A DNA stretch of 64,000 nt, taken from the IMG/VR virus record IMGVR_UViG_3300013426_000017, positions 111,407-175,406 of that record; one strand, written 5' to 3'. Origin of the DNA: a virus (lineage: Duplodnaviria > Caudoviricetes). The position numbers and the translations under genes were made by a program. Positions 1,773-21,874 of the stretch are shown here, piece after piece; position 1 is the stretch's first letter; every line of letters starts with the position of its first letter. The notes beneath the pieces were generated by a model. It did no database searches. It was not told the DNA's origin and worked only from the letters and a program-made list of their open reading frames with translations.

Positions 1773-2998
1773 TGACGAAATGTTAGGCTACTAAATATCT
1801 AACTGTTTATCAGCAGCGTATTATAGGCAGCATTCTGCGTAAGTAAAAAATACCTATAATGCGTCGGGGAAGCCTAAGTCTATAAAAAGATATGGTAATC
1901 CCGAACCAAAATATTAAAGTAAGTGTTTAATTTATCTATATATGAAAGGTGGTGAAAAGACAATGTATGTTTATAAAATTACAAATAAAATTAATAATAA
2001 AATTTATATAGGAATTACAAATAATATTGAAAAACGTTGGGGAAATGAAAAAAGCTATCCTTCAGACCCAAAAAGACGACAAGTAATCCAAGAAGCGATA
2101 CATAAATATGGAGTAGAAAATTTCAAATTTGAAATATTAGAGCGCAATTTATCTATTGAGCAAGCAGTTGCCAAAGAAATGCATTTAATTCAAGAATTAA
2201 AATCGCTCGTTCCTAATGGATATAATATAGATTCTGGTGGTTATTATCATCCAAAATGTGCCCCTCAATATGGCGCTGATAATGGACACGCTAAATTAAC
2301 TCAAGAAGAAGCGCAATATATTTTAGATCACCGAGACCAACCCATTTATTTATTATATGATGAGTTCAGTGATAAAATTTCATACGAAGCTTTTTTAAAA
2401 ATTTATAATCATAAAACATATACTAATTTAACTACGTCAGTAGATATTTACCCTTATAATCGTGAATTTTCTGGTCAATTTACGAGTGGTCCATTAGATT
2501 ATGATGATATAGTAAAAATCAGAATTAGATATTCAGATGGAGAATATTGGCGCGATGTATATGAAGATTATAAATGGGCCTATGATAATGAGTGGACCTT
2601 TTGGAATGTATACTATGGTAATAGATATAAATTAGTAATGCCTGAAGTTTTTACTAAGGAAAATCGCCATAAACATGCGGGACGTAGCAAATCTGGAACT
2701 TTAAATGGCCGAGCTAAACTTATTGAATCAGATGTTCTTGCAATTCGAGAAAAATGGCAGAATGGCGCCACACGACAAGAATTATATCTTGAATATCCAC
2801 AAGTGTCTACTACTTCAATTTGTGATATTATTAATGGAAAAACCTGGAAACATTTACTTTAATATATGTGTGTATCGACTATCCCCGGTTAGACGGGGAG
2901 TAGAGCATCTATTGATACGATGTTCGAAACGGTATTCTTTTACAAATTATTGTAGAAGTAAGAGATAGTCAGGACATATAGAAATATATGACAAACTG
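1773..2998 (+). mobile_element. Group I intron in dnaE carrying a GIY-YIG homing endonuclease
   Basis: P1 GTAGT/GCTAC with U.G at the splice site. IGS TTAG pairs the 3' exon CTAA (P10). P7 GACTAT (2877)/ATAGTC (2965), terminal G at 2998. Removal restores EDCS-LIKYDLLSIEAL, the DnaE KxDxL motif. Confidence 0.93.
1963..2862 (+). CDS. Intron-encoded GIY-YIG homing endonuclease
   Basis: MYVYKITNKINNKIYIGIT...LVPNGYN. C-terminal repeated N..AKL...IR DNA-binding-type units. RBS AAAGGTGG precedes ATG 1963 (the track starts at 1942). Confidence 0.9.
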   Translation: MYVYKITNKINNKIYIGITNNIEKRWGNEKSYPSDPKRRQVIQEAIHKYGVENFKFEILERNLSIEQAVAKEMHLIQELKSLVPNGYNIDSGGYYHPKCAPQYGADNGHAKLTQEEAQYILDHRDQPIYLLYDEFSDKISYEAFLKIYNHKTYTNLTTSVDIYPYNREFSGQFTSGPLDYDDIVKIRIRYSDGEYWRDVYEDYKWAYDNEWTFWNVYYGNRYKLVMPEVFTKENRHKHAGRSKSGTLNGRAKLIESDVLAIREKWQNGATRQELYLEYPQVSTTSICDIINGKTWKHLL

Positions 2999-5086
2999 CT
3001 AATTAAGTACGATTTATTGAGCATTGAAGCGCTAGATAAAATGCATATTTGTCTAGATCTGTTACATGATTATAATTTGATACCAGATGGTACAATTAAA
3101 GAGCGATATGATAAAATTTTAAATATTTATACCATTAATCGTACCGATCAGAACATGTGGCATAAAGTATGGAATCATGAAATATTATCATTATTTCAGA
3201 TGGAGAAGCAGAGCGGTATTAAAGGTATCGCCACATTAAAGCCTACGTCAGTTGATGATTTATCAGTTTTAAATTCTACTATTCGACTTATGGCGCAAGA
3301 AGGCGTTGATGAAATGCCAACTGATAAATTAGCAAGATTTAAAGCTGACCCAAAAGCTTGGGATAGAGAATTAGCACAATGGGGTCTTGGCACCTTGGAA
3401 AAATCTATTCTTGAACCAATCCTGAAATCATCTTATGGTCTATGTATTACACAAGAGCAGTTCATGGAACTGGTTCAATTACCTGAACTAGGCGGCTTCT
3501 CATTAACCTGGGCAGACAAATTACGTAAATCAATCGCGAAGAAAAATCCAGCAGCATTTGATGCATTAACCGAAGAATTTTATGCTACCACAAAAGAAAA
3601 ACATATAAAAGAAAATTTCGCAAAATATGTGTGGCAAGTCCTAATTAGTATGTCGAAGGGATATGGATTTAATGCTTCTCATACGCTAGCCTATTCGCTC
3701 ATTGCGCTACAGGAAATGAATCTTGCAACAAGATTCCCAATTATTTATTGGAATTGTGCTTGTTTAATTAATGATAGTGGTACCGGTATAGATGATAATG
3801 ATGCATGCATTGATTATGATGAACTCGAAAATGAAAAGGATAAAGCAAATACTGATTACGAAAAACTAGCTCGTGGAATCGGCAAAATGAAAGACTTTGG
3901 AGTCCAAGTTAATTTGGTCGATATTAATAAATCTGGATTTACATTTGTTCCTGATGCTGAAACAAATACCATCTATTGCGGTTTGAAAAGTATGCTCAAT
4001 ATTAATGATGATATTGTAAATCAAATCATTGAGAATCGTCCTTATTCATCGCCTAAAGATTTCTACCAAAAGGTAAAGCCAAAGCGCCAAGCAATGATTT
4101 CATTAATCAAAGGTGGCGCATTTGATTCCATGATGGAACGTAGCGATTGTATGATTTGGTATATTTGGGAAACCTGTGATAGGAAAAGTCGTATTACATT
4201 GCAGAATATGCCAAGTTTAATTAAATATGATTTGCTACCAAAAGATACAGAAGAACGTAAAACTGCATTTCGAGTTTATGAATTTACAAAGTATTTAAAA
4301 GCGACATGTAAGAACAAGGCAAAGCCTGGTTATTATATTCTAGATACTAGAGCAATTAATTTTCTTGTTGAAATAAAATGCGATGATAAAATTGAAATGA
4401 AAGAGCAAGAGCTTGTATTAGACGAAAAAGTCTGGGATAAAATTTACCAAAAATGGATGGATGTTTATCGAGCTTGGATTAAGAGTAATCATGACCAAAT
4501 CTTGCAAGATTTAAACACTATTATATTCTATGAAGATTGGAAGAAGTACATTAAGAAGAATAATTATTCTGCTTGGGAAATGGAAGTGCTGTGTTTCTAT
4601 TATCATGCCCATGAATTACAAGATGCTAATGTGGCGAAGTATGGAATAAAAGATTTTTATAAATTACCAAAAAACCCGATAATTGAATATTCGTATCCAA
4701 TTAAAGATAGAATAATTAATATTTACCAATTAACCAAAATTTGCGGCACTTGTATTGCCAAGAATAAAAATAAATCTACTATATCATTACTTACGCCTAG
4801 CGGTGTTGTAGAAGTAAAATTTGCAAGAGATTTTTTCTCAATGTATGATAAGCAAATATCTCAGCGCCAAGAGGATGGAAAAAAGAAAATCATAGAGCGT
4901 AGTTTTTTCCAGCGCGGTAGCATGCTCATGATTACCGGTATACGTAGTGATGATATGTTTATTTGTAAGAAATATAAAAACACCCCTGGACACAGATTGT
5001 ATAAAATAGAAGAAGTGGCGCCAGATGGTGATTTAATATTAAGAAGTGAAAGATACAAAGGAGAAATGGAAGAAGATGGCATATAA
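2999..5086 (+). CDS. dnaE: DNA polymerase III alpha subunit, exon 2
   Basis: LFQME, CITQEQFM, ADKLRKSIAKK, YGFNASHTLAYS, DINKS, LIKGGAFD and a C-terminal OB-fold-like region. Confidence 0.95.
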   Translation, partial: LIKYDLLSIEALDKMHICLDLLHDYNLIPDGTIKERYDKILNIYTINRTDQNMWHKVWNHEILSLFQMEKQSGIKGIATLKPTSVDDLSVLNSTIRLMAQEGVDEMPTDKLARFKADPKAWDRELAQWGLGTLEKSILEPILKSSYGLCITQEQFMELVQLPELGGFSLTWADKLRKSIAKKNPAAFDALTEEFYATTKEKHIKENFAKYVWQVLISMSKGYGFNASHTLAYSLIALQEMNLATRFPIIYWNCACLINDSGTGIDDNDACIDYDELENEKDKANTDYEKLARGIGKMKDFGVQVNLVDINKSGFTFVPDAETNTIYCGLKSMLNINDDIVNQIIENRPYSSPKDFYQKVKPKRQAMISLIKGGAFDSMMERSDCMIWYIWETCDRKSRITLQNMPSLIKYDLLPKDTEERKTAFRVYEFTKYLKATCKNKAKPGYYILDTRAINFLVEIKCDDKIEMKEQELVLDEKVWDKIYQKWMDVYRAWIKSNHDQILQDLNTIIFYEDWKKYIKKNNYSAWEMEVLCFYYHAHELQDANVAKYGIKDFYKLPKNPIIEYSYPIKDRIINIYQLTKICGTCIAKNKNKSTISLLTPSGVVEVKFARDFFSMYDKQISQRQEDGKKKIIERSFFQRGSMLMITGIRSDDMFICKKYKNTPGHRLYKIEEVAPDGDLILRSERYKGEMEEDGI

Positions 5087-15874: not shown

Positions 15875-15924
15875 AAAAATGGGGAACTAATACTGTGAAT
15901 ATTAGTTCCCCGATTTATTTTTTA
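15875..15924. terminator. Bidirectional intrinsic terminator between convergent genome arms
   Basis: A-run, GGGGAACTAATA-loop-TATTAGTTCCCC, T-rich run. Confidence 0.85.
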
Positions 15925-16233
15925 TTCTGTCATACGAGTAAATATTTTATTAGTTGTATCTATGATTTCCTAACCATAAGTAGCAATAAGGTCTGCTAGT
16001 AATTCTTCTTGCTAGACATTTAATTCTACATTATAGCTAAACATCGCCGCGTGTGTTATTTCATGGCACAGCACTTTTTTCATGCGCTCTGGTGATAAAT
16101 TTTCATTGATATAAATTGTTTTCGACTCATCATCACATGAACCAATGGCTAATGTGCCATTACTACGGATTAATTTAGGATGAATAGTGGATGTTAATGC
16201 AATCATCCACTATTCACCATTTATCTTGAACAT
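15922..16233 (-). CDS. Small HEXXH metallopeptidase-like protein (103 aa, 3 in-frame TAG)
   Basis: MFKINGE[TAG]WMI...G.CD...IYINENL...VLCHEITHA...[TAG]QEELLAD. Minimal zincin (ImmA/IrrE-like) layout. Confidence 0.75.
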
Positions 16234-16234
16234 C

Positions 16235-16804
16235 TCATTTTATCTTTGCTGCTAGAGCGGAAATCTTGCTTTGTAGCATCTGCTTTTCTTCGGGCGATGC
16301 ATCATCAATCATTTCTGCAATATCAACAGAGAGTTCTTGCATGTAATGTTCCAAATCCTTTAGCTGAGTTGTTTTATCTTTATGTAATTCTTTCGATTCC
16401 ATATACATTTTACGGCTCATAGGGCTGCGTCCTTCGCGCCTATCCCGCAATTCCATGGGATAAGGGCGTTCAGTATAATACGTGGCGCCGCCCGATTTAC
16501 CGGTCTCATAACCACCAGTATCATGCCCGCCAGACCTGTCGCCGCCATAATACATACGACCATAATCTTTATCCATGTCTCTTAGATAATCTCTGCTGTA
16601 TGGACGATACTCGGTGTAATATTTTTTTTCTTCTTCGCTCTTCTCCATGGCTTCGGTAATCTTCGCGTAGTAGCAGGCCTCCTCCATATCCTTGATCATG
16701 TCTACTACTTCACCAAGTTCTTTTGCATCAACTTGATCGAGCTTGCCCATTTGGCCACTGACCTGAGTTATCAAGCAATCTTTAATGCTTTTTAATCTTT
16801 CCAT
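16235..16804 (-). CDS. Hypothetical protein of the six-gene module (charged, helical, Tyr/Arg/Gly-rich middle)
   Basis: 189-aa ORF, LGEVVDMIKDMEEACYY...EEKQMLQSKI. Confidence 0.8.
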   Translation of the reverse strand: MERLKSIKDCLITQVSGQMGKLDQVDAKELGEVVDMIKDMEEACYYAKITEAMEKSEEEKKYYTEYRPYSRDYLRDMDKDYGRMYYGGDRSGGHDTGGYETGKSGGATYYTERPYPMELRDRREGRSPMSRKMYMESKELHKDKTTQLKDLEHYMQELSVDIAEMIDDASPEEKQMLQSKISALAAKIK

Positions 16805-16805
16805 A

Positions 16806-17225
16806 TTACGCCACCCTTTCTACTATTAAGCTAGCGTTCTGAACATCTACTGCAACCGTAGAGGTATTCTCAACACTAACTTGTGTGCAGCATCCAGAAG
16901 GAACGTTCAAGAACAACGTGCGAGAAACATTAAAGAATTCCTCAACGGCTGCTGGGGTTACTATCATTTGGGTTGCTGATACAGGTTCGCCATTAATTGC
17001 AATTGCTAACTGAATTGGACCGGCAGTTCCGCCAGTAGGCAGTGCAATGTTGGCGCCGAAGGTCACGCGAAATCTGGCGCGACTCTGGTTAGTTATGCCG
17101 CGGAGGGTAATGAGACCGCTACCCTCTCTGTGCATAATGGAACAGCTACCAGCAACAGCAGTATTAGTAAATTCTACATTAGAGCCGGCATTAACCGTCT
17201 ATAAAGCATTGGCTGTTATTTCCAT
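16806..17225 (-). CDS. Beta-sandwich protein, possibly BclA-C/TNF-like (139 aa, 1 in-frame TAG)
   Basis: RBS AGGAGG. MEITANAL[TAG]TVNAGSNVEF...FRVTFGANI...LAIAINGEP...VSVENTS...NASLIVERVA. Alternative ATG at 17231. Confidence 0.7.
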
Positions 17226-17245
17226 AATCATTTACCTCCTGTTAA

Positions 17246-18318
17246 TTAACCGTTGCAGTTACAAGTGTTACCATAAAGGTAATTGCATCCGCCGTAGGAA
17301 GCATAGGGATTCTGCACAACGTATGCAGGAATAGGTGCGCGCTGTGCCAGCTGAGATACGAGGTATGCATTTTGCTCACTCTGAGAAATCTGACCACGAA
17401 GCGAAGCATTCTCTGCATTAAGCATATCAAGTTTATCCTGAACAAGGAAGTCAAGAATAGAACGCATGCTAGCGTTAGTGTTGTCAATAATGTCACGTGC
17501 TGCATCCTGAGTAGCGCGACGATTCTCACAAGCCTGGCTCGCCAAATTGTAGTTTAAGTCGGCAAATGAACTCTGAATAAGCTGTTTTGCATCGCAGCAG
17601 CACTGTGCTTGCTGAGCGGCCATTGCAGCTAACTGACTATTGGTCTGATAATGTGCATCAATGATCGCACCAGTAATAGCATTGGTATTCTGCAAGTTGG
17701 TCATGCCCATGTTACAGATATCACTTTGGATATTACGTGCACTACCATTTACAGTCTCATTGACACCCGAGAAACCAGCCAAGAGGCTAGAGTTAAGACC
17801 ATAAGCACTATTAGCAACATCGCTAGTGATACCACGGATGCCACTTCTAATATCGCTAAGATCGAAACCATAAGTGAGTTCGTCGCGAGTAAGAGCACCC
17901 TGATAGCCTGCACCGTTGGAGCCATTATTGCCACCCCAACCGCCGCCCCAGCCAGCGAAGCAAAACAGAAACAGGATGATGATCCCAATAATGTTACCCT
18001 ATAGGCTTTTTATCCTATAGTTCTAATACTTGAATTCGTATTAGTTCAGCATATCTTTTTAATTTTTGTATTTTATCAAAAATTATCGCGGCCTCGTGGT
18101 AGGATTATATCTTTTCACCTACTATGCGTTGCCCCTGACTAGTCTTAGACTAGCCTTCGGTTCGGATTAGCATCTCAGCCTTCCCGCTTAATTCCGCGAT
18201 TTAACCATGGCAAATCATCTTACCATGCACCGTCTCCGCCCCACATGCCGCCATTGCGGTCGTTACCAGTAGCCGCAGCTATGTCAGACAAGCTGTAGCC
18301 CGAATTTGTGTTGAACAT
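17246..18318 (-). CDS. Gly-rich membrane/coiled-coil protein, 278 aa; join(complement 18318..18222, 17985..17246)
   Basis: MFNTNSGYSLSDIAAATG...GGDGAW-W-IIILFLFCFAGWGGGWGG...AQCCCDAK...coiled coil...PIPAYVVQNP..CNCNG after intron removal. RBS AAAGGGG. Confidence 0.85.
17986..18221 (-). mobile_element. ORF-less group I intron (236 nt)
   Basis: Minus strand: P1 CATGGT/GCCATG (U.G), IGS GATGATTT pairs the 3' exon GGATCATC, P3 ATCGCGG/CCGCGAT, P7 GCATA/TATGC in AAGATATGC, P9 hairpins, terminal G. Removal restores the frame. Confidence 0.88.
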
Positions 18319-18348
18319 ATTAAATGTCCCCTTTCATAAAATATATTT

Positions 18349-18591
18349 TTACAACCCCAAATTATTTTTGAAGTTTGTAAATTCTTGATCAAAATCTACG
18401 CCACGAGAAGCGCAGAAGTTGCGGGCAAATTGTTCAATACCTTGAGCATTATTATTCTGGGCTAATGATAATAAGTTTGCTCCAACAGGATTAGATTGAG
18501 CTTGGTTCTGAAGCATATTAAGCATTAACTGTTGAGGATTTTGCCCACTTTTAATCATTTGAATTAATTGCATAGGATTCATTTGCGGCAT
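18349..18591 (-). CDS. Small Met/Gln/Asn-rich helical protein (NP repeats, STI1-like appearance)
   Basis: MNPMQLIQMI..QNPQQLMLNML..SNPVG. RBS GAGGTG. Confidence 0.75.
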   Translation of the reverse strand: MPQMNPMQLIQMIKSGQNPQQLMLNMLQNQAQSNPVGANLLSLAQNNNAQGIEQFARNFCASRGVDFDQEFTNFKNNLGL

Positions 18592-18607
18592 TGTAATTCA
18601 CCTCACT

Positions 18608-18985
18608 TTAAAATTTGTATGGCGCCGGCTCGGTTTGTGCCTCATTAGTCGGCGTGGTAGTAGGTGCGCTAGGTCTAGGCTGCGCCACTAACTCTTGAAT
18701 CTTTAGCAATGCGCTTTCAAATTCTGCTCTTGTGACGTAATCAGCTGTAGGCGCTACTGGCATAGGCTTCAGTTCATACATATTCAATGTAGCAGTTCCA
18801 TCCATATTAATTTGTTTAGTATATATTTTCTTATTCGCCAAATCAGGAAAATAAAATACTGAACCATCAAAATCAATGGAGAGCGCACGAGCTTCTTCAA
18901 GAGAGGACACAGGGCGTCCTTTCAATGAGTAAGAAGGCTGCCTAGGCGGTTGAGTTGGTGCTTGGAAATAATTATTACTATACAT
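18608..18985 (-). CDS. Hypothetical protein, first gene of the six-gene module
   Basis: LKGRPVSSLEEARA..DFDGSVFYFPD..KIYTKQINMDG..YVTRAEF. Start at 18985 or 18994. Confidence 0.78.
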   Translation of the reverse strand: MYSNNYFQAPTQPPRQPSYSLKGRPVSSLEEARALSIDFDGSVFYFPDLANKKIYTKQINMDGTATLNMYELKPMPVAPTADYVTRAEFESALLKIQELVAQPRPSAPTTTPTNEAQTEPAPYKF

Positions 18986-19015
18986 TGCTAACATCCTTTC
19001 ACTATTTTTCTTTCC

Positions 19016-19555: not shown

Positions 19556-21874
19556 TTATATTTTGGTTAATTTCCAATTGGAACCATCATACACATATGG
19601 AATAGCTTGCTACCAACCGCTGTTAGAAGTAGCGCCAGTGTATATCCATACATGATAATCGCCCCAATCGGTACCATTATTTATCTTTACTGACCATTCA
19701 GGTTCCCAAATGGCATATAACGACATATTAGATGTCTATTCATAATTTGTTCCTGAAGAATAATTAGTTCCTGTGCCATCTGCAGATGTATTCCAAGCAA
19801 CGAATTTATAACCAACTCGTGATACATTTGGTGGGTTAAATTTAGCTTTAATTGTTGTCCATTCAGGATATAATGTTAAATTAGATGTAAGAGTATAAGT
19901 GCTACCACATCGCCAATAATCTACACCATCACCTGATGAAGCAACCGCACCGCTATAATTCTGATTCCAATAATTCTACTAGTATTGAATTGCATCTTTT
20001 ATCTAATACCTTGGTCCGTTAGCGACTGCGGTTGCAGAATAAGTATAACCAGAGGAAGGATAGTTATATGATACAATACTACCACCCGATAAATAATAAT
20101 TAGTATAGTATGTTGTACCATTAGAACGAGTATAAGTGGCATCTCGAATCTTGAGCTTATAATTAGTAGTGGTTGCAGAATAAGTGGTAGATGGTGAACC
20201 ATATCGACCGGGATTATAAGTTACAGTATATTCATTTGCTTGCCAAATTGCGTATAAAGTACCGGTATATCCCGCATCAAGTGCATCCATAGGAGCGTCA
20301 TAACTGGTACCAGTACCACTTGAATTTGTGTTCCATTCAATAAAAGTAGCAGAACTATTAACTGGCTAATAAGAATGATTTGTAGAATATCGAGTACTCG
20401 TGGTTGTGGTAGAACCATAACCATATTTTCGTTTAGTAACCTATTTCCAAGCCGATGAAGAAGCAATAGAATACCCGTTACCGTTTAATGAACAAGTAGT
20501 AGTTGTTGTTCCATCCCAAAGGGCATATAACGAACCAGCATATCCAGCTTCAAACGCGCTCTATGGATTAGAATAGACAACAGTATATGAACCACTTGAA
20601 GTGGCCCAGCCTTTAAAACTTGTATATCCCGAAGGAGCTGAAGGGGAATAAGAACCATTGGTATATGTAGTTCCACCACCGCTTGGAGTAGGTGATTCAC
20701 CATATAACCAAGCTTCAGCCGTCGTGCTTTTCGCAGTTGCGACAAAAGAACTAGAACAGTTATATAGAGTTATAGACTTGCTGCTAGCGCTTTTTTTGAA
20801 TACACACCAACGCTCTTTGTTATTATAGGTAGCAACCCAAGTGGAACTCGCAGTCTAATCTACTGACGTTGTATTTGGGGAAGATGCATAGCCAACAAAC
20901 GTGTATCCACTAATTGGTGGGTCCTGGCTACCGAGTGTATAATCTTGTGATTTATATTTGTCAGCGCTAGTCATTTCAAAAGTGCCAGTAGAACATAAAT
21001 GAACTTGCCAAGTGTATGATGGGGCCACAAAAGTTAAATAATTAGCTGTGCCTGAGTATGTAGCTGTCTAATTAGGAATAACTGTGCAATAATATAATTT
21101 ATAATATCGAGAAGTGCTAGTATCCTAATCCACTTTAAAATTACACGAAGTAGAATTAGCAGTAGACTCACTACGAACATAATAAGGACCAGTGGGATTG
21201 TTACCCACAAGCCATCGACCTGAATAAGAACTTTTTCCCTAAAAATATTGTGCACCAGAATATAAACCGTAGCCAAAAGTAGTTCGAGTTATGCTTGTAG
21301 GCTTGTATGTATTTACAGTAGGTTCTGTATAGTTGAAAGTCACTGAAAAACGAGACGCTGTAGATAAATTCCACTGGCACATAGCCGATGTATTCCAAGG
21401 ATAGGAAGCAATATAAATGTAAACTCCACTGGTATTAGCCGCAGACAAATTAAACTGTTTTGCAGAATAATTAAAAGTAACATTGCCAAAACTATCTACG
21501 GCTGCTGTTGGCGTAGTGGCGTAGACTAAAGTAGTATCGCCTAATTTTGTAGGACCTGAATTCATCCAACCAGAAGGCGTGTCTGTGGAAGCGGTAGAAA
21601 CAGACATATAACTACCCAGCTATTTCCCACTTGCAATACCCGAACAGCGTGCCAACTAAATGGTAAAATTAATATAATTAATTGTAACCTTTTGATTTTT
21701 TAAAGCGGTTGGGATTGGAACATAAAAGACTGCAACTGCACTACCACTACTACCGTATCCTACATAGCCGCCTCCACCTCCAGAATATTTTGTACCCCAA
21801 GTCCAACTTGATCCCACACCAGATTTACCATAAAATCCGGACAGGTTATTATGAGAATACGTTACTGAAGCCAT
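19556..21874 (-). CDS. Ser/Thr/Tyr-rich virion accessory/fibre protein with InlB-B (Listeria-Bacteroides)-like repeats (772 aa, multiple TAG)
   Basis: Track fragments 21656-21874, 21239-21607 and 20003-20290 share one frame. Repeats GY.F.GW/WNT..GTG..Y...LYA.W. C-terminus GW[TAG]QAIPYVYDGSNWK. Confidence 0.75.

Follow-up and report, generated by a model that had tools for sequence, protein, structure and literature searches.

The window analysed here is a stretch of 64,000 nt from a 175,406-bp IMG/VR record that is 96% complete. A gene on its minus strand is split by a 236-nt insert, with exon 1 at 18318-18222, the intron at 18221-17986, and exon 2 at 17985-17246. The split gene has the following parts.

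18222..18318, minus strand: exon 1, from the ATG at 18318 through 32 codons (the last three GAW) and on to the T that opens the following Trp codon
18220..18222, minus strand: in-frame TAA, formed by the last exon-1 base and the first two intron bases
17986..18221, minus strand: intron, 236 nt, terminal G at 17986, no endonuclease ORF
17246..17985, minus strand: exon 2, in which GG finishes the Trp codon and IIILFLF... follows; stop codon TAA at 17248-17246
17246..17782, minus strand: truncated 178-aa ORF with a TTG start; automatic gene calls give this 178-aa product and not 278 aa

A GGGGA ribosome-binding site precedes the ATG at 18318, and the 32-codon frame that starts there terminates in ...GDGAW. 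Its 32 residues are the N-terminus of the intron-less homologue P0003 without a mismatch, and the part encoded by exon 2 is 94% identical between P0003 and the window protein. The exon-2 product consists of a TM helix, a Gly/Trp/Asn-rich linker, a long helix, and a Cys-rich tail. The downstream frame (17998-17246) is open for 250 codons, and the first start codon in it is the TTG at 17782. As the preliminary description had pointed out, unspliced RNA would encode a 32-aa peptide only, and ORF callers miss the N-terminus of the protein. In other words, the true product would be a 278-aa membrane-anchored protein, and the 178-aa fragment would be a gene-caller error. The error is also present in public protein collections, in which P0007 (178 aa, 99% identical) and P0009 are truncated gene calls.

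The exact extent of the insert was established by comparison with intron-less alleles from related gut phages. In L005, the DNA that encodes P0003, positions 2669-3097 align with window 18650-18222 (96.5%) and positions 3098-3884 align with window 17985-17200 (88.6%). Because the two flanks abut in L005 with neither gap nor overlap, the extra DNA in the window is exactly 18221-17986, 236 nt. The intron therefore lies to the base where the preliminary description had placed it, at a pair of Trp codons. The insertion is exact against a second intron-less allele (L006) as well, and the same insertion point recurs in independent assemblies and samples. The junction falls within the second Trp codon (T/GG, the slash marking the insertion point here and below), across which the intron-less alleles read GAWW-IIILFLF. 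It is flush, with no terminal repeats and no target duplication. The joined exons comprise 837 nt, or 278 codons plus a stop codon, and L005 and L006 encode 278-aa products that are colinear with them. The full-length relatives P0002-P0004 are likewise 278 aa long, share 91-94% identity, and read ...GDGAWWIIILFLFCFAGW... unbroken.

The insert can be drawn as a group I intron with the elements listed below, in which the percentages are pairing frequencies among its relatives.

18206..18227, minus strand: P1/P10 guide region, in which exon 18227-18222 (CAUGGU) pairs with intron 18211-18206 (GCCAUG)
18049..18199, minus strand: catalytic core, a hand-drawn structure that was checked base by base
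18199-18194 with 18091-18086, minus strand: P3, 94.2% paired, all six pairs with double changes
18186-18183 with 18166-18163, minus strand: P4, 98.6% paired
18180-18178 with 18171-18169, minus strand: P5, 90.0% paired
18155-18148 with 18144-18137, minus strand: P6, 98.2% paired
18127-18123 with 18053-18049, minus strand: P7, 95.9% paired
18122-18118 with 18103-18099, minus strand: P7.1, 98.7% paired, 5/5 pairs covary
18084-18077 with 18068-18061, minus strand: P8, AU-rich, 88.2% paired
18069..18076, minus strand: P8 loop, 8 nt, the position of an HNH ORF in L198, L057, and L095
17999..18044, minus strand: peripheral 3' domain, consisting of P9 and P9.1
18044-18038 with 18029-18023, minus strand: P9, 98.2% paired
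18020-18014 with 18005-17999, minus strand: P9.1, 98.7% paired

P1 has 6 bp, engages intron nt 11-16, and ends in U.G where the 5' splice site lies. Across the family it is paired in 92.7% of cases, and 6/6 of its pairs covary. P10 is an 8-bp contiguous pairing of intron 18219-18212 (nt 10 to 3) with exon-2 positions 17985-17978 (+1 to +8), and it fits the window's own exon-2 variant AUC AUC, including an exon-2 C that is absent from other alleles. The group I pseudoknot arises from the interlocked P3 and P7, with the P7.1 hairpin between P7 and P3'. The conserved G-C pair of P7 is present in 84 of the 93 rows of the family alignment. Double changes occur in all 14 pairs of P9 and P9.1, the domain that is most like the regions matched in phage Twort (see below). 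Neither a P2 nor a P7.2 hairpin is drawable in the window's copy; the spacing between P1 and P3 is only ~6 nt, and an invariant CCACGAGG stretch follows P7.1. The fold energy corresponds to z = -5.09, and none of 200 shuffles was equally stable. The group I identity proposed in the preliminary description is thus borne out by the U.G pair of P1, P10, the terminal G, the helices from P3 to P9.1 with their pseudoknot, and the covariation described next. The intron had also been called minimal and ORF-less. It is ORF-less, as no sense-strand ORF of at least 30 aa is found within 17986-18221, and it is minimal in a relative sense only, as the shortest full-length matches in other contigs are ~221 nt, including 13 exon bases.

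Do relatives of the intron preserve this structure? A covariance model, R1, was built from the window intron and L021, an ORF-less intron at the same site. A search with R1 returned 118 matches in 98 sources, and the window intron itself scored 301.6 bits. Most of the matches above 100 bits span the model end to end, and G+C over the matches ranges from 0.22 to 0.57. Pairs were counted in 106 distinct relatives. Overall, 95.7% of pair cells form pairs, compared with 68.8% after shuffling and 32-41% when the partners were slid by 1-3 columns. Double (compensatory) changes are found in 55 of 59 pairs, the covariation score is 0.491 vs 0.127, and the observed values were reached in none of 500 shuffles. 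R1 was fitted to nested partners for the P3 and P7 positions and not to their true pseudoknot pairs, and the P3 and P7 counts are therefore an independent test. The true P3 and P7 pair in 94-96% of cells, whereas in the same alignment the three helices affected by the nested alternative pair in just 13-61%. For the other helices, the alignment was fitted to R1, which inflates the pair counts somewhat, but the margins are large.

The Rfam library is silent at this locus. No family reached its gathering score anywhere in the 64,000-nt window, and the Infernal classification that the preliminary description had proposed as a check gave no match to the Rfam group I models up to E=10 on 17850-18350. 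Because the fold has independent support, we take this silence as a sensitivity gap of the library and not as evidence against the fold. One short core pattern has matches in >102 IMG/VR contigs. A subfamily of more than 100 copies in IMG/VR contigs that Rfam does not see implies that split genes of gut phages are systematically mis-called.

The host gene is conserved. It has 2399 database relatives at E<=0.001, and in an alignment of 19 sequences W32, W33, and L37-F40 are invariant and I34 is nearly so. Between the window and the intron-less alleles L005 and L006 there are 58-66 synonymous and 15-17 nonsynonymous codon differences, which argues that the split gene is under purifying selection. 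These results uphold the earlier suggestion that the gene is conserved and selected. Its protein belongs to phrog_16490 (PHROGs, E 4.1e-34), a family of unknown function, and Pfam yields only sub-threshold matches of the coiled-coil type. The AlphaFold2 model of P0003 has a mean pLDDT of 47.4 and is essentially one long helix (75-248). In isolated phages, tblastn finds only 'hypothetical' proteins and two structure-style labels at 26-29% identity; these labels, 'spike protein/glycoprotein' and 'outer capsid protein/viral fiber', are distrusted.

The gene is part of a six-gene syntenic cassette on the minus strand (window 15922-18994) that consists of genes for 128 aa and 80 aa, the host gene, a BclA_C-like gene (phrog_20016), and genes for 189 aa and 103 aa. 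Across 82 loci, the neighbours are found on the same strand in 53 (128 aa), 61 (80 aa), 75 (the 141-aa BclA_C-like protein), 57 (189 aa), and 54 (103 aa), and the host gene is plausibly the core of this module. The 103-aa protein is metalloprotease-like (phrog_1233/phrog_87). Upstream, a holin homologue is present in 24 of the 82 loci within the 1.5 kb of flank covered. The BclA_C-like gene (window 16806-17231, minus strand) gives its 141 aa with one TAG read, and phrog_20016 is then matched over its whole length (2-141 of 141, E 8e-56). The late genes of this phage need TAG read as Gln. A 772-aa ORF at window 19556-21874 (minus strand) depends on readthrough of 14 TAGs. The 64-kb window has no tRNA gene, and hence no suppressor tRNA is located there.

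Comparison of alleles reveals what kind of element occupies the gene. Intron-less and HEG-bearing alleles, a search for which had been suggested at the outset, were both found at the same site (L005 and L006; L198, L057, and L095). Among the best 80 viral loci of the host gene, 74 are uninterrupted and read WW-I(I/L)(I/V)LF. In the DNA of these 74 intron-less alleles, TGGT/GG and the T at +4 occur in 100% and the A at +3 in 95%; the sequence of the empty target site is GCATGGTGGATCATC. Introns are present at the same site in at least eight other contigs. In seven of seven tabulated same-site alleles, the 5' junction creates TAA or TAG.

Three of the same-site introns have no endonuclease ORF: L021 (230 nt), L003 from bajarodcaudo virus 2 (248 nt), and L022 (1159-1498, 340 nt). 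L022 has a P2 hairpin (UAUAAG-GUGA-CUUAUA), which presumably resembles the P2 of td, and a non-coding P8 insert of ~110 nt that may be what is left of an endonuclease gene. In the IMG/VR loci L057 (797 nt) and L095 (790 nt), the P8 loop holds an HNH_3 ORF that is intact, and L027 (797 nt, also IMG/VR) has a broken HNH/NUMOD4 ORF, located in its P7.1 region. Direct confirmation of HNH_3 was obtained for all three of these alleles. In L067 (1-430), a truncated IMG/VR contig, in-frame TAGs of the HNH ORF stand at the Gln positions of L057. The protein encoded by exon 2 of L198 (1501-2037) equals a database protein only when TAG is read as Q. The TAGs of L067 at the Gln positions of L057, together with the TAG=Q reading in L198, suggest that the homing endonuclease has taken on the altered code used by the phages that host it. 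In L129 and L182 the host-protein match begins at residue 34, and in L129 the R1 matches adjoin it; the same site is probably occupied in both.

The nearest relative, L198, comes from a gut metagenome (ERZ943799). It is 94.8% identical to the window over exon 1 and the intron's 5' portion, and 88.4% identical from the 3' part of the intron on. The alignment runs up to window position 18080 and resumes at 18067, with ~520 extra bases in L198 between the two points. These bases encode a called product of 153 aa in the P8 loop, with a weak match to HNH_3 and a faint one to NUMOD4. The HNH gene of L198 thus sits exactly at the window's P8 loop, which argues that the window copy is the ORF-less form of a homing intron. 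The HNH-bearing alleles (L198, L057, L095, L027, and L067) share with the window copy the insertion point, the core, and the P1/P10 logic. They differ in that the P8 loop of L198, L057, and L095 holds an HNH ORF of 153-158 aa, whereas that of the window has 8 nt. The P7.1 stem of L198 is GGGAG/CUCCC and that of the window GUAGG/CCUAC, a compensated change. Exon and guide also covary among alleles (CAUGGU/GCCAUG vs CUUGGU/GCCAAG). Identity to the window copy is 68-91% in the introns but only 62-77% in the exons on either side, as expected from horizontal spread or strong structural constraint. A single site therefore displays a full series: empty, an intron with HNH, an intron with a broken HNH, and an ORF-less intron.

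It is very probable that 18221-17986 is an IA2-like group I intron without a homing endonuclease, an ordinary selfish element in a conserved late gene. How would it be removed and how did it arrive? A guide near the 5' end of the intron would pair with the last six bases of exon 1 (P1) and the first eight bases of exon 2 (P10). Guanosine would be bound by the P3-P8 core, which contains the P3/P7 pseudoknot, as in the standard group I pathway. Two transesterifications would then free the intron and join GCAUGGU to GGAUCAUC (GCATGGT-GGATCATC as DNA), restoring the reading frame. By this route the window intron is predicted to splice. Its arrival would have been by endonuclease-driven homing into the invariant TGGT/GGAT target. 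The window copy may be what remained once the P8 loop had lost its HNH ORF, or it may be the ORF-free precursor of the HNH-bearing form; the data are compatible with either direction. Alone, the copy is probably unable to move, and its phenotypic effect is probably close to nil.

The same genome contains another intron of this family outside the window, at C1:91603-91856 on the plus strand (L189 1501-1754; R1 178.3 bits). It splits a GyrA/ParC-like topoisomerase gene (...STAYFHG(K) / (D)ASCYGVLCKMAQ...), and a 326-aa LAGLIDADG ORF with eight in-frame TAGs (L189 526-1506) precedes its core. From P4' to P3', 84 of 84 consecutive core bases are identical between this intron and the window intron. 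The same 84 bases are matched at 78 positions in L198 by our own count, and core identity with L021 is 89%. These values hint that the genome's two introns have recombined with each other. If this is true, intron cores within a genome evolve in concert by recombination. A more far-reaching proposal is that the intron is more than a passenger, with its core homogenised with that of the GyrA/ParC intron and its splicing serving as a late checkpoint in a TAG-recoded phage, but we consider this improbable.

The preliminary description had suggested that splicing may gate production of the membrane protein. According to this explanation, the intron is kept since splicing that is slow or conditional controls when, or how much of, the protein is made, for example in the late phase of this TAG-recoded phage. 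The immediate in-frame stop does tie protein output strictly to splicing, the gene is among the late genes that need TAG as Gln, and a precedent exists in the regulated group I ribozymes of Clostridioides difficile (PMC3984707). However, no Rfam riboswitch or other RNA family is found within the intron or beside it, the intron is missing from 74 of the 80 best viral loci that hold the gene, and the close intron-less relative L006 has a nearly equal genome size. Moreover, the stop at the splice site is a by-product of an exon U followed by intron A(A/G), and the homing endonucleases of the sister alleles are the signature of a selfish element. The suggestion of a regulatory gate therefore finds no backing here and is considered very unlikely.

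Another explanation is that the insert is a dead relic that no longer splices. In that case, the gene would be inactive or would yield only its C-terminal 178 aa, started at the TTG (17782) and devoid of the membrane anchor. A copy with no endonuclease ORF is under no selection for mobility, and the 178-aa product is what gene callers give, but all helices are intact, and P1 and P10 fit their own exons exactly. Furthermore, both exons are open, in phase, and free of indels, with a synonymous excess of ~4:1, and the frame upstream of the TTG (17998-17783) is open and encodes the invariant TM helix of the family. A relic is accordingly very unlikely. The possibility that the insert is not an intron at all, but a small mobile element, an assembly chimera, or a 236-nt translational bypass, was raised because Rfam is silent; it has nothing specific in its favour and is effectively refuted by the exact, flush insertion at one point in independent assemblies and samples and by covariation that backs ten group I helices. 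To our knowledge, the only translational bypass is that of T4 gene 60 (~50 nt), and 236 nt is far too long for this mechanism. An intein is ruled out by in-frame stop codons, and an IS or IStron by the flush junction and the lack of a transposase.

The intron described here is thus best regarded as a known type of mobile element in a less usual target gene, and no principle is changed by it. What it adds is a new phage intron homing target outside DNA metabolism, namely an invariant pair of Trp codons where a TM helix begins, within a conserved cassette of late genes. Phage group I introns were already known outside DNA metabolism, for example in terminases (PMC3984707, PMC11878797).

The insert is assigned to subgroup IA of the group I introns as an IA2-like member, a label that is approximate since this copy lacks P2 and shows no clear P7.2. 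A P7.1 extension is typical of subgroup IA. It is among the peripheral elements that define group I classes (PMC3984707), and the IA2-like label is based on P7.1 together with homology to phage Twort. R1 matches Twort at 16997-17240 and 17448-17549, weakly (20.7 and 25.7 bits; E 4.2e-6 and 1.2e-7 on a 3.5-kb stretch). Both matches fall in unannotated DNA that is flanked by a virion structural protein and an 'intron encoded nuclease'. The orf142 gene of Twort contains three self-splicing introns, of which I2 and I3 closely resemble each other and are members of subgroup IA2 (PMC10136302), and the I2 ribozyme has been co-crystallised with CYT-18 (PMC10136302, PMC4275181). To judge by their position, the matches presumably are the orf142 introns. 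The Twort introns resemble the window intron in being compact (~250 nt), in having a common 3' domain (CUGAAC, P9, P9.1, UAACAU.AUUG), and in residing in a gene of the structural-gene region and not of DNA metabolism. They differ in that the match is weak and mostly via the 3' domain, and in their host gene and host phylum. Splicing has been demonstrated for the Twort introns, whereas that of the window intron is a prediction from sequence.

Further relatives of the core are found in phages of Firmicutes. In blastn against isolated phages, only intron-like stretches were matched, in Listeria phage LIS04, Exiguobacterium phage vB_EauM-23, Clostridioides phage phiCD211, and bajarodcaudo virus 2; the last of these matches is the homologous gene. 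R1 scores 105.7 bits in LIS04 (OQ999172) and 80.3 bits in vB_EauM-23 (MH844558), both in terminase-region DNA, and 67.1 bits in phiCD211 (L004, LN681537), beside the tape-measure gene. These three share the core family with the window intron (76-84% in blastn over core segments), and compensated changes in P3 and P4 can be seen by eye. They are unlike it in their host genes and flanks, and the matched stretches have no intron annotation. Endonuclease genes adjoin the matches in LIS04 and the Exiguobacterium phage. In phiCD211, the R1 match (1796-2080, 285 nt) is directly upstream of an annotated Intron_gpI (2098-2363), and both have the minor tail protein on one side and the tape-measure gene on the other. 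There may thus be two tandem group I introns before or inside the tape-measure gene.

In T4 and SPO1, phages with classical introns of subgroup IA, R1 has no match at E<=0.01. The introns of T4 td, nrdB, and nrdD and of the SPO1 DNA polymerase gene are alike in their P7.1-type extension, U.G pair, and terminal G, but they are hosted by genes of nucleotide metabolism or replication. The introns of the Bastillevirinae, covered by a recent survey in Bacillus phages, are mostly IA2/IA3-like, have ~350 nt of non-coding sequence, and carry HNH and LAGLIDADG ORFs in their loops (PMC11878797). Their targets are DNA polymerase, the large subunit of terminase, thymidylate synthase, and ribonucleotide reductase, and include no membrane protein of unknown function such as the one that is split here (PMC11878797).
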